Origin: a bacterium
Lineage (GTDB): Bacteria; UBA10199; 2-02-FULL-44-16; JAAZCA01
Reading direction: 5' to 3'
Assembly (NCBI GenBank): GCA_963674695.2
Contig: CAXXGI010000003.1
Span: 1,013,064-1,077,063 of the forward strand
Length of the DNA: 64,000 nt
The notes under the pieces were generated by a model, which was not told the DNA's origin, searched no databases, and saw only the letters and a program-made list of their open reading frames with translations. A program made the translations under genes and the position numbers. This document shows, piece after piece, positions 40,753-45,647 of the stretch. Positions within the stretch are counted from its first letter, which is position 1. The number at the start of each line of letters is the position of its first letter.

Positions 40753-40983
40753 ATGTGCCTGGCCGTACCCATGCAGATCACTGAAATCTCCGGCGACACG
40801 GCAACCGTGAACGTCTCGGGACTGAGCCAGTCGGCAAACGTCTCGCTCATCGACACCCCTGCCATCGGCGATTACGTCCTCATCCATGCGGGATTTGCCA
40901 TCCAACGCATCGATGAAGACGAGGCGTTCAAGACGGCCGAGTTGCTCAATAAGATGGCCTCATTCGTAAACGGTGAACAGTAA
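40753..40983 (+). CDS. hypC: Hydrogenase assembly chaperone HypC
   Basis: MCLAVPMQI N-terminus (essential Cys2). Length is 76 aa. Confidence 0.93.
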   Translation: MCLAVPMQITEISGDTATVNVSGLSQSANVSLIDTPAIGDYVLIHAGFAIQRIDEDEAFKTAELLNKMASFVNGEQ

Positions 40984-40987
40984 ACAG

Positions 40988-41048
40988 TTCACGGTTCACA
41001 GTTCACGGTTCACGGTTCACAGTTCACGGTTCACAGTTCACGGTTCAC
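40988..41048. repeat. (TTCACGGT/TTCACAGT) 8-nt word array, about 7.5 units, in the hypC-hypD spacer
   Basis: The sequence is ttcacggttcacagttcacggttcacggttcacagttcacggttcacagttcacggttcac, ending 2 nt before the hypD ATG. The ORF-track N-terminus of hypD (FTVHSSRFTVHSSRFTVHGS) is its translation. Confidence 0.9.
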
Positions 41049-41050
41049 AT

Positions 41051-42136
41051 ATGAAATACATCACCGAATATCGCGACCGCAATCACGCCAAGGCCCTGGT
41101 CGAAGCGATTGCGCGCGCGGCGAATGATCGTCCCATGACCTTCATGGAGGTCTGCGGCACGCACACGATGTCGCTCGGGCGCTTCGGCATCCGCGAATTG
41201 CTTCCGGAAAACATCCGGCTGATCTCGGGGCCGGGCTGCCCCGTATGCGTCACCCCCAACGCCTATCTCGACCATGCCATCGCGCTGGCGCGCCAGCCAA
41301 AGACGACCATCTGCACCTTCGGCGACATGATGCGCGTGCCCGGCTCCACCTCGAGCCTCGAAAAGGAGCGAAGCCAAGGGGCGGACATCCGTATCGTCTT
41401 CTCGACGCTCGATGCGCTGGCCATTGCGCGCGAACATCCCGATCGACAGATCGTCTTCCTCGGCGTCGGATTCGAAACGACCGCCCCCACGGTCGCCACG
41501 GCGATCAAGACGGCCGCCAACGAGAGGATCCCCAACTTCTCCGTCCTGTGCGCGCACAAGCTGGTCATGCCGGCACTCGAAGCGCTGCTGGCCGGAGAGG
41601 TTCAGCTCGACGGTTTTCTCCTTCCGGGACATGTGAGCGCCATCATCGGCGCGAAGGCCTACCGTCCACTTCTCTCACGCCACCGTATCGCCGGCGCCAT
41701 CGCCGGTTTTGAACCGACCGACATCCTCGAAGCCCTCTTCGAGCTGATTGGGCAGATCACCCATGACGATCCGAAGCTGACGACCGCATACGTGCGCGCC
41801 GTCACCGAGGAGGGCAACCAGCGCGCACGTGCCCTGATGGAGGAGATCTTCGAACCAACCGATGCCGAATGGCGCGGCCTGGGAACGATTCCCGCAAGTG
41901 GCCTAAACATCCGAAAACGTTATTCATCCTTCGATGCGGCAGAGCGTTTCACGATCGAAGTCGAACCGATGCGCGAACCGAAGGGGTGCCGCTGCGGCGA
42001 GATCCTGCAGGGCCGAATTGCGCCAACAGACTGCCCCCTCTTTGGAAAGAATTGCACGCCGACGCATCCGGTGGGTGCCTGCATGGTCTCCAGCGAAGGA
42101 ACGTGTGCGGCGTATTATAAATACCGTGACGCGTAA
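41051..42136 (+). CDS. hypD: Hydrogenase maturation protein HypD
   Basis: MKYITEYRD start. It has the CGTH, GPGCPVCV and GFETT motifs and a C-terminal Cys-rich FeS region. Length is 361 aa. Confidence 0.95.
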   Translation: MKYITEYRDRNHAKALVEAIARAANDRPMTFMEVCGTHTMSLGRFGIRELLPENIRLISGPGCPVCVTPNAYLDHAIALARQPKTTICTFGDMMRVPGSTSSLEKERSQGADIRIVFSTLDALAIAREHPDRQIVFLGVGFETTAPTVATAIKTAANERIPNFSVLCAHKLVMPALEALLAGEVQLDGFLLPGHVSAIIGAKAYRPLLSRHRIAGAIAGFEPTDILEALFELIGQITHDDPKLTTAYVRAVTEEGNQRARALMEEIFEPTDAEWRGLGTIPASGLNIRKRYSSFDAAERFTIEVEPMREPKGCRCGEILQGRIAPTDCPLFGKNCTPTHPVGACMVSSEGTCAAYYKYRDA

Positions 42137-42158
42137 CTCGTGACTCGTGACTCGTGAC
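42125..42158. repeat. (GTGACTCG) word array at the hypD stop
   Basis: The sequence is cgtgacgcgtaactcgtgactcgtgactcgtgac and includes the hypD TAA. Confidence 0.85.
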
Positions 42159-42211
42159 ATGAAAGGACGTAAATCACACGGGCGACAATCGAAACATCAA
42201 CCCTGCCATTT

Positions 42212-42371
42212 TACCGCCATAGCAGTAATTATAGCCATTCCCATCGACACATTCCCACTTTCCATCGAAAAATAGAAATATTTACTGCTGTAGCAGTATT
42301 TTATGTTGAACACCTCATACATAAGGCGTAGACTTACGATATACACAGATATTTTTACTGCTATCGCGGCA
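42212..42371. promoter_or_regulatory. Putative HipB operators (three TACTGCT-N2-AGCAGTA-like palindromes) in an AT-rich promoter region
   Basis: The three sites are TACCGCCATAGCAGTA (42212-42227), TACTGCTGTAGCAGTA (42283-42298, 7-bp perfect arms) and TACTGCTATCGCGGCA (42356-42371). They sit upstream of the HTH gene. Confidence 0.45.
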
Positions 42372-42379
42372 AAAAAGGA

Positions 42380-42613
42380 ATGATTATGGGTAGATCTCTC
42401 GCACATCTCATACGGTCTCATCGGAAAAAGAGCGGTCTCACACAAGCCCAACTCGCAACGATGGCCGGGGTCGGCAAGACCGTCGTCTTTGATGTCGAAC
42501 ATGGCAAGAAGACGATCATATTCGCGACGATTCAGAAGATGCTCAAGGTCCTCAACATTCACCTCATCGCCCAGAGCCCGCTCGAGGGAAACGTCACCAT
42601 TGAGGAGATCTGA
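42380..42613 (+). CDS. hipB: XRE-family HTH protein, HipB-like
   Basis: LRSHRKKSGLTQAQLATMAGVGKTVVFDVEHGK is a Cro/C1-type HTH. It is 77 aa and the first gene of a three-gene module. Confidence 0.85.
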   Translation: MIMGRSLAHLIRSHRKKSGLTQAQLATMAGVGKTVVFDVEHGKKTIIFATIQKMLKVLNIHLIAQSPLEGNVTIEEI

Positions 42614-42614
42614 C

Positions 42615-42923
42615 ATGAAAAAGGCTGCCATTTTCTTTCAGGCAATCAGAGCGGGGACGTTGGAGCAACGCGACGACGGTTCATGTCGCTTCTCCTACGA
42701 ACCGTCGTATGAAGGCCAACCGATCTCACTGACGATGCCAACAGCACAGGCCCACTACGACTTCGACGCCTTCCCCCCCTTCTTCGAAGGCCTCCTCCCC
42801 GAGGGAATACAACTCGAGGCCCTGCTCAAACAACGGAAGATCGATCGCAACGACCCCTTCTCCCAGCTCGTCGCGGTAGGCGCAGATCTCGTGGGAGCTG
42901 TCACGGTCGAGGAGATCGCATGA
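42615..42923 (+). CDS. hipS: HipS-like protein (stand-alone HipA N-terminal subdomain)
   Basis: GAGGAG RBS, 102 aa. It aligns with the first ~105 aa of E. coli HipA (..FFEGLLPEG.., ..LVAVGADLVGAVTV.. vs ..FFDNLLPDS.., ..LSEIGRDSVGAVTL..). Confidence 0.8.
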   Translation: MKKAAIFFQAIRAGTLEQRDDGSCRFSYEPSYEGQPISLTMPTAQAHYDFDAFPPFFEGLLPEGIQLEALLKQRKIDRNDPFSQLVAVGADLVGAVTVEEIA

Positions 42924-43849
42924 GACGCTGTCCGATCACCTATGAACAGATTGCGGAAGACGAGCGCTACTCGAGCGCAGGGCTGAAGCAGCTCTCGCGC
43001 ACCCTCACCGACATCGCCCCCCTCCCCTTTACCGAAGCGGAACAGATTCACGAAGCGATGGCGCGCGCCGACAAGATGTCGATCCAGGGCGTGCAGCCGA
43101 AGCTCAGCGCCGTCCTTCGCGTCAAGGAGGGTCGTTTCGACATCGTCGACCGTGGCGGAACCTACATCCTCAAGCCACAGATTCGATATCCCGAAGTTCC
43201 GGAGAACGAAGCGATAACGATGACGCTCGCGGCATCGCTCGGCATTGACGTCCCTGTGCACGGCCTCGTCGAAGGTCGTGACAAGCATTGGACCTACTTC
43301 ATCAAACGCTTCGATCGTCTGGGGAAGGGACGCAAGCTCCCCGTCGAAGATTTCGCACAGCTGGCCGGAGCGACGCGCGAAACGAAATATCGCAGCTCGA
43401 TGGAACAGGTCGCCAGGATCGTCGAAACCCATTGCACCTTCCCCATGATCGAGCTCCGCAAGCTCTTTGTACGCACGCTCTTCAATTTCCTCACCGGCAA
43501 CGAGGATATGCACCTCAAGAACTTCTCCCTCATCACGCGCGATGGAAAGGTGGAACTCACCCCCGCCTACGACTTCCTCAATTCGACAATCGCGCTTCCG
43601 AATCCGATGGAAGAGCTCGCACTTCCCCTCAAAGGAAAAAAGGCGAGGCTCACGCGTAAGTACCTCATCGCATACTACGGTGAAGAACGACTGGAGTTGA
43701 ACAAGAAGGTCATCGGTGATGTCCTGGGGAACATACAGCGAGTCATTCCATTCTGGAGAGAACTCATCGACAGGAGCTTTCTCTCGGCGAAAATGAAGGA
43801 GCGGTATACGATGGTATTGGACAGGCGTCTCAAAACACTTGGGCTGTGA
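42920..43849 (+). CDS. hipT: HipT-like Ser/Thr kinase toxin (HipA core kinase lacking the N-terminal subdomain)
   Basis: The start overlaps the hipS stop. It has the Gly-rich loop MSIQGVQPKLS, the FIKRFDR block, and the catalytic motif GNEDMHLKNFS (HipA: GATDGHAKNFS), followed by LTPAYDF. Length is 309 aa. Confidence 0.85.
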   Translation: MRRCPITYEQIAEDERYSSAGLKQLSRTLTDIAPLPFTEAEQIHEAMARADKMSIQGVQPKLSAVLRVKEGRFDIVDRGGTYILKPQIRYPEVPENEAITMTLAASLGIDVPVHGLVEGRDKHWTYFIKRFDRLGKGRKLPVEDFAQLAGATRETKYRSSMEQVARIVETHCTFPMIELRKLFVRTLFNFLTGNEDMHLKNFSLITRDGKVELTPAYDFLNSTIALPNPMEELALPLKGKKARLTRKYLIAYYGEERLELNKKVIGDVLGNIQRVIPFWRELIDRSFLSAKMKERYTMVLDRRLKTLGL

Positions 43850-43852
43850 TTA

Positions 43853-45544
43853 TCACTCGATATCCGACGGCGGTTTCACGCCGGTGCAGGCCTCGGCGCT
43901 CCCCCCCTCCAGGAAGCACTTCACGACACCTCTCAACTCAGGTCCGGCGTAGCTCCACAAACCCGGCTTCTCGAAAAGCTGCGCAAACCACTCGATGGGA
44001 GTTTCTCCGACATCCGAAAAATCGGTCCAGAGAGGATATCTGACCCATTGCAGGGAACCTTCGACACAAGCATTCATTCGATGCGCGCGCTCACCATTCA
44101 AGGTAAATCTCCAAAAAGCTCCCTTGATCGGGTTTTGACACATCTCTGACAGCAATCCAATTCTGAAAGACGTCAGGCTATTTCGATCCCCATGGACAAG
44201 GAAGTCGTCGATGCTATGGCCGAGTTCATGCCGCGCAACCTTATACTGAAGCTCCAGCGTAGGAAGCACTCCTGTGCCAAAGCGATTCGCAAAGGGATTA
44301 TAGACCGCCGCTGCCTTGCACGGATAGCCAAAAAGGGATTCCATAAGAGAGGCGATATCATCCGAAGCAAGCGTCGGAGGACGCTCGGTTTCTGGATCGA
44401 TGCCGATAAATGTAAGTCCTCGTTCATCACCCTCGCCCTGGGCCCAGCGACGGACCATATGCGGCCCGAACGAGCGCATCGCCTCGCCGATCGCGAAGAG
44501 GCGTTTGGCGAAAGCATTCGGACCACCCTGGAGAATCACCGCTTCTTCGCCGAGCTCCGCCGGGAGCGCAATCTCGAAGAGATGTCCGTTCACCGAGATA
44601 CGTCCGTTTTTCGGATCAACTTTCGTCAATTGATCGATCACCGGCTTCAGCTGACGCCGTTCATCCTCCGTCAGCGCACCGGAGCGGTGAAAGAGCGCAA
44701 AGGCATGCCATGCCTCTTCGACCGAGGAGAGACGATCATCGTCCTCAACATCGAGACGCGCTCGCAAATCGGGCGACATCGGCTGCGGAAACGCGACACT
44801 CCGATAAAAGGGAAGAGGTGCCTCCGGATACTCGGAGATGGGATCGAATTCGACCCGAACCAACGCGTTTCGAGTAGAGTCAATAACGTTCTCGGCATTG
44901 ATTTTCAGCAACGTCGAGAACCTTTCCGGCGATTGACGAAAGAGTTCAATCGCACTTGTTTCTATGATAAACTCTCGTTGGTCGAAGTTGATCTCCACAG
45001 TACTCGTCGACCAAAGCAGCTGCAAGCCGTACCGGCGAATAAGATCCTCCATCATCCACCGCACCTCCGGCGTCTCGAACGTCAGATGGTCGGCCATGTC
45101 TGATTGCACCTTCATTCGCTCGCAGACATCGAGACTCGAACACTCCATCTCCAGATGTGCAATGTCACCTTCCATTTCGCGAATATCGAAATCGACATTC
45201 CACTTTCCATTCCGTGCCCAACGAATAACATGAATGGACTCCACCGGTTGATGCAAGAGCAACTCAAGGCGTTCCTCTATCGATGCGCGATAGGTGTCGA
45301 CGAGCTCTTCATCGTTGCCACAGGCGCGCCGTTCAAGCTTCGCGCCCGCCTCGGTGACCACCCCTGAACAATGCGCGGGACCGGCCTCGCCGCGATCGAA
45401 ACTCACGTCGATCTGCCGCTCACCGCTCTCGTCTTGCCGTTCGGAATAGCGATAGATATCCTCACAGACGAGATTCTCCGGAGGCGAAGCACTGCCCTTC
45501 TGTTTTTCCAGAACGGTCCCCATCGCACACTCCTTCTCCTTCAT
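43853..45544 (-). CDS. Orphan cytoplasmic protein with C-terminal HExxH (HELGH) motif
   Basis: 563 aa from ATG 45544 (GGAG 6 nt upstream). An ATG at 45523 and a TTG at 45604 are also possible. It has no signal peptide or TM helix. The only recognisable motif is VARHELGHSIDDF. GC looks lower than in flanking genes. The overlapping plus-strand ORF 44192-45103 is Arg-rich shadow. Confidence 0.7.
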   Translation of the reverse strand: MKEKECAMGTVLEKQKGSASPPENLVCEDIYRYSERQDESGERQIDVSFDRGEAGPAHCSGVVTEAGAKLERRACGNDEELVDTYRASIEERLELLLHQPVESIHVIRWARNGKWNVDFDIREMEGDIAHLEMECSSLDVCERMKVQSDMADHLTFETPEVRWMMEDLIRRYGLQLLWSTSTVEINFDQREFIIETSAIELFRQSPERFSTLLKINAENVIDSTRNALVRVEFDPISEYPEAPLPFYRSVAFPQPMSPDLRARLDVEDDDRLSSVEEAWHAFALFHRSGALTEDERRQLKPVIDQLTKVDPKNGRISVNGHLFEIALPAELGEEAVILQGGPNAFAKRLFAIGEAMRSFGPHMVRRWAQGEGDERGLTFIGIDPETERPPTLASDDIASLMESLFGYPCKAAAVYNPFANRFGTGVLPTLELQYKVARHELGHSIDDFLVHGDRNSLTSFRIGLLSEMCQNPIKGAFWRFTLNGERAHRMNACVEGSLQWVRYPLWTDFSDVGETPIEWFAQLFEKPGLWSYAGPELRGVVKCFLEGGSAEACTGVKPPSDIE

Positions 45545-45647
45545 TATCGTCTCCACGATGGGGAGAAGTTGCCGACATATGTAGATTGTCGCTGCCAAGG
45601 GCAATTTTTCAGTGCGAACAGGGCGTCATTCTGATAGGGCAACCGCC

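Follow-up and report, generated by a model that had tools for sequence, protein, structure and literature searches.

Among the gluzincins, lethal factor (LF; family M34) is a toxin protease with an HExxH helix and a glutamate ligand on a later helix. The M13 enzymes (neprilysin, ECE and PepO) are two-lobed ectoenzymes of about 700 aa with an ExxxD third-ligand motif, and the M78 proteins (ImmA/IrrE), which have a minimal zincin core, are often located in mobile elements. The Mlc titration factor MtfA (family M90) is cytoplasmic and stand-alone, and it has been related to lethal factor by the title of its structure paper (Xu et al. 2012, cited in PMC13482132). In the Mlc:MtfA structure of 2026 (PMC13482132), the zinc ligands of MtfA are the histidines of HEXXH and the glutamate of an EXXA motif; the protein, wedged into the DNA-binding domains of Mlc, retains all catalytic residues and acts as an anti-repressor, and its physiological substrate is unknown. 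A zincin-like metallopeptidase (MPTase) core, composed of a three-stranded sheet, an HExxH helix, a glutamate helix and a variable insert between the helices, has also been described for the polyvalent proteins of phages and plasmids (Iyer et al. 2017, PMC5512222). Little is understood about cytoplasmic proteins related to the LF/MtfA group, so that a branch with clear accessory domains could help to show what such proteases recognise.

The locus described here lies in a stretch of 64,000 nt (the window; contig CAXXGI010000003.1, positions 1,013,064 to 1,077,063) from the genome of an uncultured environmental bacterium. A gene on the minus strand of the window, at 43853-45544, encodes a 563-aa protein which represents a new, very rare and unannotated family inside the well-known zincin superfamily. 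Its architecture combines three parts in a way unseen in named families: a beta domain at the N-terminus, then an EF-hand-like module, and finally a core that bears an active-site signature of the LF/MtfA type. The gene product is probably a soluble, cytoplasmic, stand-alone zinc endopeptidase with its own recognition or regulatory domain and a cation loop, acting independently of the HipBST genes beside it.

Gene, active site and proposed mechanism

The gene and the parts of its product are as follows; conserved residues were called from an alignment of 11 sequences, down to 22% identity.

43853-45544, minus strand: whole open reading frame (ORF), 563 aa and stop, with full-length homologues P0002-P0004 at 46-32% identity
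44870-45487, minus strand: N-terminal beta-rich domain, residues 20-225, seen in the alignment and the model (pLDDT ~80-90)
44525-44827, minus strand: middle module, residues 240-340, with a PLPxY motif, a helix-loop-helix and a small beta sheet (pLDDT > 90 in both models)
44717-44752, minus strand: EF-hand-like 12-residue loop, D265-E276, DVEDDDRLSSVE; family consensus DxDGDGxISxVxE
43856-44515, minus strand: gluzincin core, residues 344-563, seen in the alignment, the models, Foldseek and hhalign
44204-44230, minus strand: active-site helix motif HELGHSIDD (H439, E440, H443, D446 and D447, invariant in the 11 aligned sequences), preceded by R438
43982-43993, minus strand: EWFA, with the invariant E518 as predicted third zinc ligand, paired by hhalign with the EFFA glutamate of M90/MtfA

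The reading frame is intact over 563 codons plus stop and free of internal stops. Since frame and motifs are retained in P0002-P0004 and in further full-length homologues (46-22% identity), the ORF is no mere chance frame and, judged by this conservation, it is a genuine gene. In-frame ATGs are found at 45544 and 45523, each with a GGAG Shine-Dalgarno sequence 6 nt before it. The Shine-Dalgarno of the alternative start, M8 (45523), is equal or better; this start would give a product of 556 aa and matches the “MG” beginning of two homologues. The promoter scan found no sigma-70-like site upstream of the gene. No transmembrane segment or signal-like stretch is present in the 563-aa protein, the highest 19-residue Kyte-Doolittle mean being 0.90, as had been stated in the initial annotation of the window, which described a long intact ORF lacking both.

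The residues invariant in the 11 sequences are W279, F350, G353-E354-A355, R357-S358, G360, W367, G370, E374, N420, Y434, R438-H439-E440, H443, D446-D447, E518 and L537. The family signature is R-H-E-x-x-H-x-x-D-D with a downstream glutamate (E518). HELGH (H439-H443), contained in KVARHELGHSIDDFLVHGD, is the sole HExxH of the protein; the initial annotation had correctly singled it out, placing it about 110 residues from the C-terminus where the actual distance is 124, and had proposed conservation of the motif as a check. Its invariance among the aligned members supports a genuine zincin active site. HExxH is located in predicted helix 430-448, and E518 at the start of predicted helix 519-525.

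In the proposed mechanism, one Zn2+ would be held by H439 and H443 of the active-site helix and by E518 of the next conserved helix, a choice of ligands supported by those of MtfA. A water molecule would be activated by E440, and the pocket would be shaped by R438 and by D446, three residues past the second histidine. The substrate would be added as an extra strand to the three-stranded sheet just ahead of the HExxH helix. The EF-hand-like loop before the core is, in most members, a probable site for a divalent cation with a structural or regulatory role, the copy in the window being degenerate, and the lineage-restricted N-terminal beta domain would probably select substrates or mask the active site, that is, serve recognition or autoinhibition. 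Metal binding, proteolysis and these accessory roles are predictions from the sequence and the models, whereas the existence of the gene, its invariant motifs, its domain layout and rarity, the insertion and the lack of a conserved partner are established by the analysis.

Domain architecture

AlphaFold2 models of the full-length protein (pLDDT 69.5) and of the C-domain alone (pLDDT 73.8, pTM 0.80) were built on the same shallow alignment of 11 sequences. In both, confidence is high at residues 20-220 and 245-380 and intermediate in the HExxH helix and in the helices at the C-terminus. The core runs in the order: (i) a helix with RLFxxGEAMRSFG, in which GEAMRSFG is invariant; (ii) three strands (378-381, 413-416 and 421-424); (iii) the HExxH helix 430-448, numbered 195-213 in the C-domain model; (iv) a variable insert at 451-516; (v) the glutamate helix with EWFAxLFE. 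The C-terminal helices carry a conserved cysteine pair, CFLEGGSAEAC. The description of the zincin-like MPTase core in PMC5512222 corresponds to the same topology. The features of clan MA are found here as an HExxH on a helix, a glutamate on a downstream helix as predicted ligand, and, in the model, a sheet before the active-site helix.

Conservation in the family begins at about residue 240, and two short members, P0009 (319 aa) and a 313-aa paralogue in genome G019, contain nothing else, so that the family module comprises the C-terminal ~325 residues. The N-terminal domain is clear only in P0002-P0004, divergent in P0005, P0006 and P0008, and absent from P0009 and the G019 paralogue. It showed no significant fold match and no internal repeat, and it resembles neither the C-domain profile nor those of M90 and M78. 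In contrast to the arrangement of LF, it is no degenerate duplicate of the catalytic part, and LolA/RseB-like fold matches were discarded as too weak. The initial annotation had seen a featureless N-terminal region of about 400 aa; in fact the zincin core starts at about residue 344 and the EF-hand-like loop occupies 265-276, leaving only residues 1-235 as a separate, less conserved part.

The textbook EF-hand loop, to which the DxDGDGxIS-type pattern belongs, reads D-x-[DNS]-x-[DNS]-G-x-[ILV]-x-x-x-[ED] and lies between two helices. Eight of the nine distinct sequences that cover the loop segment (P0001-P0009, where P0008 is the L005 ORF; P0010 lacks the segment) have DxDGDGx[IV], P0009 having T at position 3, and the extended family motif is I-D-x-D-G-D-G-x-I-S-x-V-x-E-A-W. 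The loop of the window protein, DVEDDDRLSSVE, keeps positions 1, 5 and 12, with E at position 3 and D replacing G at positions 4 and 6. The segment is modelled as a helix, a loop with a short strand, and a helix. Sub-threshold profile matches of the loop were to polcalcins and Ca-binding proteins, and, in one member, to the EF-hand of Pfam.

Comparison with known zincin families

By its sequence signature, HExxHxxD followed by E-[WF]-F-A, the protein is a gluzincin of the LF/MtfA style. The Pfam models of M90 (PF06167, threshold 26.2 bits) and M78 (PF06114, threshold 22 bits) match neither the protein nor the 11 members, and ATLF (M34) matches none of the 11 members at E <= 10. As a zincin core is present and no family's threshold is reached, the protein stands for a new zincin family.

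In the Foldseek search of the PDB with the C-domain model, ranks 1-28 are all lethal factor (E 0.058-1.3, probability 0.85-0.89, TMq ~0.3), with selecase, IrrE (E 7.5), EryP and ACE far behind. The comparison with lethal factor rests on this fold-search output, in which nothing passes E 0.001, and the match is a consistent lead, not proof. The full-length model gave noise (SHP2, paraoxonase, LolA and MucB; E 0.007-0.7, TM ~0.1), and the C-domain was modelled alone instead. The viral library BFVD returned, at E 0.1 or worse, phage MuF/minor-capsid fusions, phage proteins annotated as “lethal factor” and PolyVal metallopeptidases. A sequence search of the PDB with the protein alone gave no significant match; with the profile, sub-threshold matches of the strand-HExxH region were to ECE-1 (E 0.021), LF (E 0.19) and Zmp1, besides EF-hand matches.

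Compared to lethal factor, the window protein shares the gluzincin type, the HExxH helix and a predicted glutamate ligand on a later helix, and about 190-250 columns of the C-domain model were aligned in this best match. However, identity is 11-16%, E is at least 0.06 and the TM-score is ~0.3. In contrast to LF, the protein, which is cytoplasmic and comes from an uncultured environmental bacterium, lacks a secretion signal and a protective-antigen-binding domain, differs in its N-terminal domain and has an EF-hand-like module in addition. It does not belong to the M34 lethal-factor family.

For profile comparison by hhalign, nine M90/MtfA genes, seven M78 genes and an M13 fragment, all from related environmental genomes, served as yardsticks, and 16 column-shuffled and two reversed profiles served as controls (best score 20.7). 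The M90 comparison scored 37.9 (P 1.6e-4, probability 50%), aligning ETPIEWFA...PELRGVVKCFL with TNEAEFFA...PELYELLRGYY. The confident part is the glutamate helix only, and the HExxH helices become collinear only when the alignment is extended at mact 0.01. The order HExxHxxD, then ~60-75 residues, then E-[FW]-F-A...P-E-L-[YR] is common to both, as is the cytoplasmic, stand-alone form, whereas the window protein is twice as long and has unrelated N-terminal and EF-hand-like modules. The source genome (G000) also encodes a true MtfA-type M90 protein (G000:C2:432296-433018, 284 bits). Counting G000, 9 of the 41 genomes that were searched have this conserved type, among them 8 of the 13 in its own family.

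Against M78 the hhalign score was 35.3 (P 1.7e-4, probability 49%), over two strands and the HExxH helix of the minimal zincin core. The predicted glutamate ligand, however, lies ~75 residues past HExxH in the window protein and 25-30 residues past it in M78, and the aspartate three residues past the second histidine, present in the window protein, is missing from the M78 yardstick sequences. Nor does the gene have an adjacent co-transcribed XRE partner, the sole HTH gene in its vicinity, hipB, being 1.2 kb away in a convergent operon, and no adjacent XRE gene was seen beside any homologue in the contexts read. Consequently, the initial proposal of an ImmA/IrrE-type or other minimal zincin holds as far as the zincin is concerned and fails for M78, given the unmatched PF06114, the IrrE match at E 7.5 vs 0.06 for LF, and the LF/MtfA-type signature. 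One M78 protein is encoded elsewhere in the source genome (G000:C2:167418-167675).

The polyvalent-protein MPTases share the sheet, the two helices and the variable insert with the window protein, and one of their clades has an Asp three residues past HExxH, as here (PMC5512222). The window protein, in contrast, is not part of a giant multidomain protein, has no Pfam or PHROG match, and no relative of it was found in IMG/VR. Finally, the strand A-x-Y-x-x-x-x-N-x-[IL]-V and the HELxHxxDD after it recall the M13 arrangement NAYY...HExxHxFDD, but the ECE-1 match is sub-threshold. M13 affiliation was rejected: hhalign against the M13 fragment from a relative gave 4.8% probability, over the HExxH helix only.

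Distribution of the family

The family is very rare and unnamed: worldwide, roughly a dozen sequence clusters belong to it. Neither the protein nor any of the 11 members could be assigned to a family in Pfam, NCBIfam, PADLOC or PHROGs, even at E <= 10, and the defence-protein models of PADLOC-DB give no match at E <= 1. When 1.84 billion cluster representatives were searched exhaustively with phmmer, 12 proteins reached E <= 0.001, four of them E <= 1e-30, so that the label of orphan given by the initial annotation is appropriate. A word-indexed set of 5.8 billion proteins gave three matches, and no additional homologues when searched with the C-domain profile. No relatives were found in IMG/VR (2.9 million viral contigs) or in two metagenome scans.

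Strong matches occur in 2 of the 93 genomes of the class: the source genome and G019, a groundwater “Deltaproteobacteria” metagenome-assembled genome of the same order as the host. The G019 locus was the sole one recovered when GTDB genome contigs were searched. G019 has two copies, a 569-aa form (L045, G019:C119) and a divergent short form of 313 aa (L050 1414-2355, G019:C120); the latter carries RHEFGHYV and DLNGDGVI and is convergent with an AbiEii/DUF6036-like nucleotidyltransferase gene. Five homologues (L003, L009, L010, L011 and L012) come from Logan assemblies of neighbouring runs, SRR22387872 to SRR22388280, and probably derive from one study or environment; given these run numbers, the family may be very restricted ecologically.

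P0011 (267 aa; L054 1023-2226) stops just past HELGHAVDDF, and a same-strand ORF starts 37 nt on; the copy may have been split or frameshifted. A distant relative (hhalign 94.5%) is the unannotated 643-aa “hypothetical protein K1X76_06590” of G050 (L046 166-2097, G050:C40), in which the zincin half is N-terminal (AHAYYSPQENTIHLP...HELNHAIDDF) and is followed by an extension of ~450 aa. This protein is a singleton in the 5.8-billion-protein set, and a bridging search from it returned only itself.

Genomic context of the relatives

Contexts could be read for about ten other family members, including the following:

P0002: DUF5684, a B12-radical-SAM gene and a large unknown protein
P0003: a convergent VapBC pair
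P0004: a He_PIG/PLAT protein and an M3 peptidase, on a 684-kb contig
P0005: an integrase/AlpA/HTH_17/NYN island, with an RHH gene just upstream
P0006: methyltransferase and radical-SAM genes
P0008 (G019): a neighbour resembling inositol-1-phosphate synthase, named by eye
P0009: mfd
G019 paralogue: FolE2 and the AbiEii-like nucleotidyltransferase

No neighbour recurs, and no Hip gene stands beside any of these members. About four of ten family contexts are mobile or rich in toxin-antitoxin (TA) genes, which places the family in the accessory gene pool and defines no system. Thus, of the neighbourhood and motif checks suggested by the initial annotation, HExxH conservation was found, while a conserved TA or defence partner among the homologues was not.

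The islet between hypD and hypE

In the window the gene shares a low-GC islet with a HipBST module:

42137-45647: low-GC islet of 3.5 kb between hypD and hypE, with hipB, hipS, hipT and then the convergent protease gene
42380-42613: hipB, HTH_3 and couple_hipB profile matches
42615-42923: hipS, Couple_hipA profile match
42920-43849: hipT, HipA_C profile match

These profile matches confirm the Hip neighbours named by the initial annotation. The hipT stop (TGA, 43847-43849) and the protease stop (43853-43855, read as tca on the plus strand) are separated by 3 nt (tta), exactly as first described, and the genes are convergent; the protease gene is antisense both to the hyp operon and to the direction of hipBST. 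Upstream of the islet lie hypF, a small membrane ORF, hypC and hypD, and downstream hypE. In two genera of the host's family (hypD 65-69% identical) hypD stands directly beside hypE, with a gap of 14 nt in G006 and a gene-free gap of ~95 nt in G008; the segment 42137-45647 is therefore a lineage-specific insertion of 3.5 kb, splitting the hydrogenase-maturation operon. The co-acquisition with HipBST suggested earlier agrees with this joint position between the two hyp genes.

The lower GC of the islet was likewise borne out: GC is 0.552 for the ORF, 0.545 for the islet and 0.561 for hipBST vs 0.612 for hypFCD and 0.628 for hypE, and 42001-45500 is the lowest 3.5-kb bin of the window (0.547 vs 0.58-0.61 in the other bins). 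GC at third codon positions (GC3) is 0.613 for the protease gene vs 0.723 for hipT and 0.72-0.74 for the hyp genes. Because of this gap between the protease gene and hipT, the halves of the islet may differ in history or time of acquisition.

Functional interpretation

Several points weigh against the interpretation as a zinc endopeptidase. No profile library (Pfam, NCBIfam, PADLOC or PHROGs) recognises the protein, and none of its fold or profile similarities reaches conventional significance (Foldseek E >= 0.058; hhalign probability ~50%). Only 11 sequences underlie the models, in which the segment 451-516 between the zinc-binding helices has pLDDT < 50. Moreover, for MtfA, among the nearest relatives, repressor binding is the main mode of action and no substrate is known (PMC13482132), a precedent by which a zincin fold is no guarantee of proteolysis as the biological output.

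The alternative which survives best is an effector of a conflict system: a single-gene toxin- or defence-like protease, either directed in abortive infection against host or phage proteins or exported non-classically, and travelling in the accessory gene pool. It would agree with the best fold matches, which are to the toxin protease LF, with the phage-related matches in BFVD and with the very patchy distribution in the class. The mobile or TA-rich contexts, namely HipBST in the window, VapBC at P0003, the integrase/AlpA island with RHH at P0005 and the AbiEii-like nucleotidyltransferase at the G019 paralogue, point the same way, as does the deviating GC3 of the gene. EF-hand loops and a conserved cysteine pair are, in addition, commoner in proteins which meet high Ca2+ or oxidising conditions. 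However, neither PADLOC nor the viral contigs yielded a match, and none of the family members carries a signal peptide or is accompanied by a secretion system or by a conserved gene for immunity or an antitoxin; in the window, the ~100 nt before hypE are too little for a partner gene. The structural similarities are all weak, and TA genes are common in such genomes, so that the adjacency is possibly due to chance. Such an effector role is rather unlikely. We regard as unlikely, too, the proposal of a new single-gene, cation-gated, LF-like protease which would cleave a host or invader protein in phage attack or inter-bacterial competition and would spread from genome to genome as a small cargo gene that comes to lie beside TA modules.

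A link to the Hip module, raised by the initial annotation, would make the protein an accessory of HipBST that cleaves or titrates HipB or HipS, or senses stress to free HipT, by analogy with ImmA/IrrE and XRE regulators or with MtfA and Mlc. The shared islet, the stops 3 nt apart and the similarly low total GC are in favour, as are the likeness to M78 over the strand-HExxH half and the action of zincins on HTH regulators, known for M78 and for MtfA on Mlc (PMC13482132). In contrast, no other family member with readable context is near any Hip gene, and HipT homologues of 54-62% identity occur in six related genomes without any family match. The flanks of the HipBST trios read in G005 and G013 contain unrelated genes and no gene of the protease family, and in G019 the HipT-like gene and the protease homologue are on different contigs. 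Being convergent to hipBST, the protease gene is a separate transcription unit and thus not co-transcribed, its GC3 hints at a separate history, and HipBST is already complete as a three-part system. A literature search for HipBST together with a metalloprotease matched work on AAA proteases only, unrelated by title and abstract.

This accessory role has only a slim chance of being correct. With Hip-free contexts on one side and HipT homologues lacking the protease gene on the other, HipBST appears as a self-contained mobile module and the protease gene as separate cargo: it is not a HipBST component and merely shares the islet, from which it would be transcribed separately. The functional link is thus unsupported, and HipBST is to be read here as an ordinary three-gene system.

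It is quite improbable that the protein is a zincin-fold binding protein, that is, an MtfA-like anti-repressor or titration factor whose output would be the sequestration of a partner, not proteolysis. The glutamate-helix segment aligns best with M90/MtfA, and MtfA itself combines intact catalytic residues with an anti-repressor function (PMC13482132). Nevertheless, Pfam M90 leaves the protein unmatched while the true MtfA of the source genome scores 284 bits, and the extra N-terminal and EF-hand-like modules give a different architecture. In addition, seven active-site residues are strictly invariant in very divergent members, a constraint that speaks for selection on catalysis.

That the ORF is a remnant in decay, or one that exists by chance opposite hyp read-through transcripts, would suit an orphan antisense to both hyp and hipBST, but this explanation is practically negligible and effectively refuted by conservation, given that the frame is open over 563 codons and preceded by a Shine-Dalgarno sequence, that its full-length homologues stand in unrelated contexts and have invariant catalytic motifs, and that the domains are confidently predicted.

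Further features of the islet

No convincing target-site duplication or clear terminal repeats were found at the islet ends. An imperfect inverted repeat of 16 nt (42182-42197 and 45577-45592, with a GCGACAATC core, 81% complementary) lies ~45 nt inside the ends; it may delimit the insertion or have arisen by chance. The 240-nt AT-rich spacer upstream of hipB contains three palindromic copies resembling TACTGC-N4-6-GCAGTA (42212-42230, 42281-42301 and 42351-42373), which are probably HipB operators, and a promoter-like hexamer pair at 42244-42273 stands among them.

Tandem heptamer repeats of the CGTGACT type touch the hypD stop (42125-42160). A related heptamer repeat at 40973-41050 codes FTVHSSRFTVHSSRFTVHGS before the conserved HypD start MKYITEYR.

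The splitting of hypD and hypE by an insertion with an antisense gene is of local interest for the expression of hypE. As hypE now lies 3.5 kb from hypD with an opposite-strand gene between them, its transcription must start from a promoter within the ~100-nt gap 45545-45647, unless it relies on read-through that would run antisense to the protease gene.

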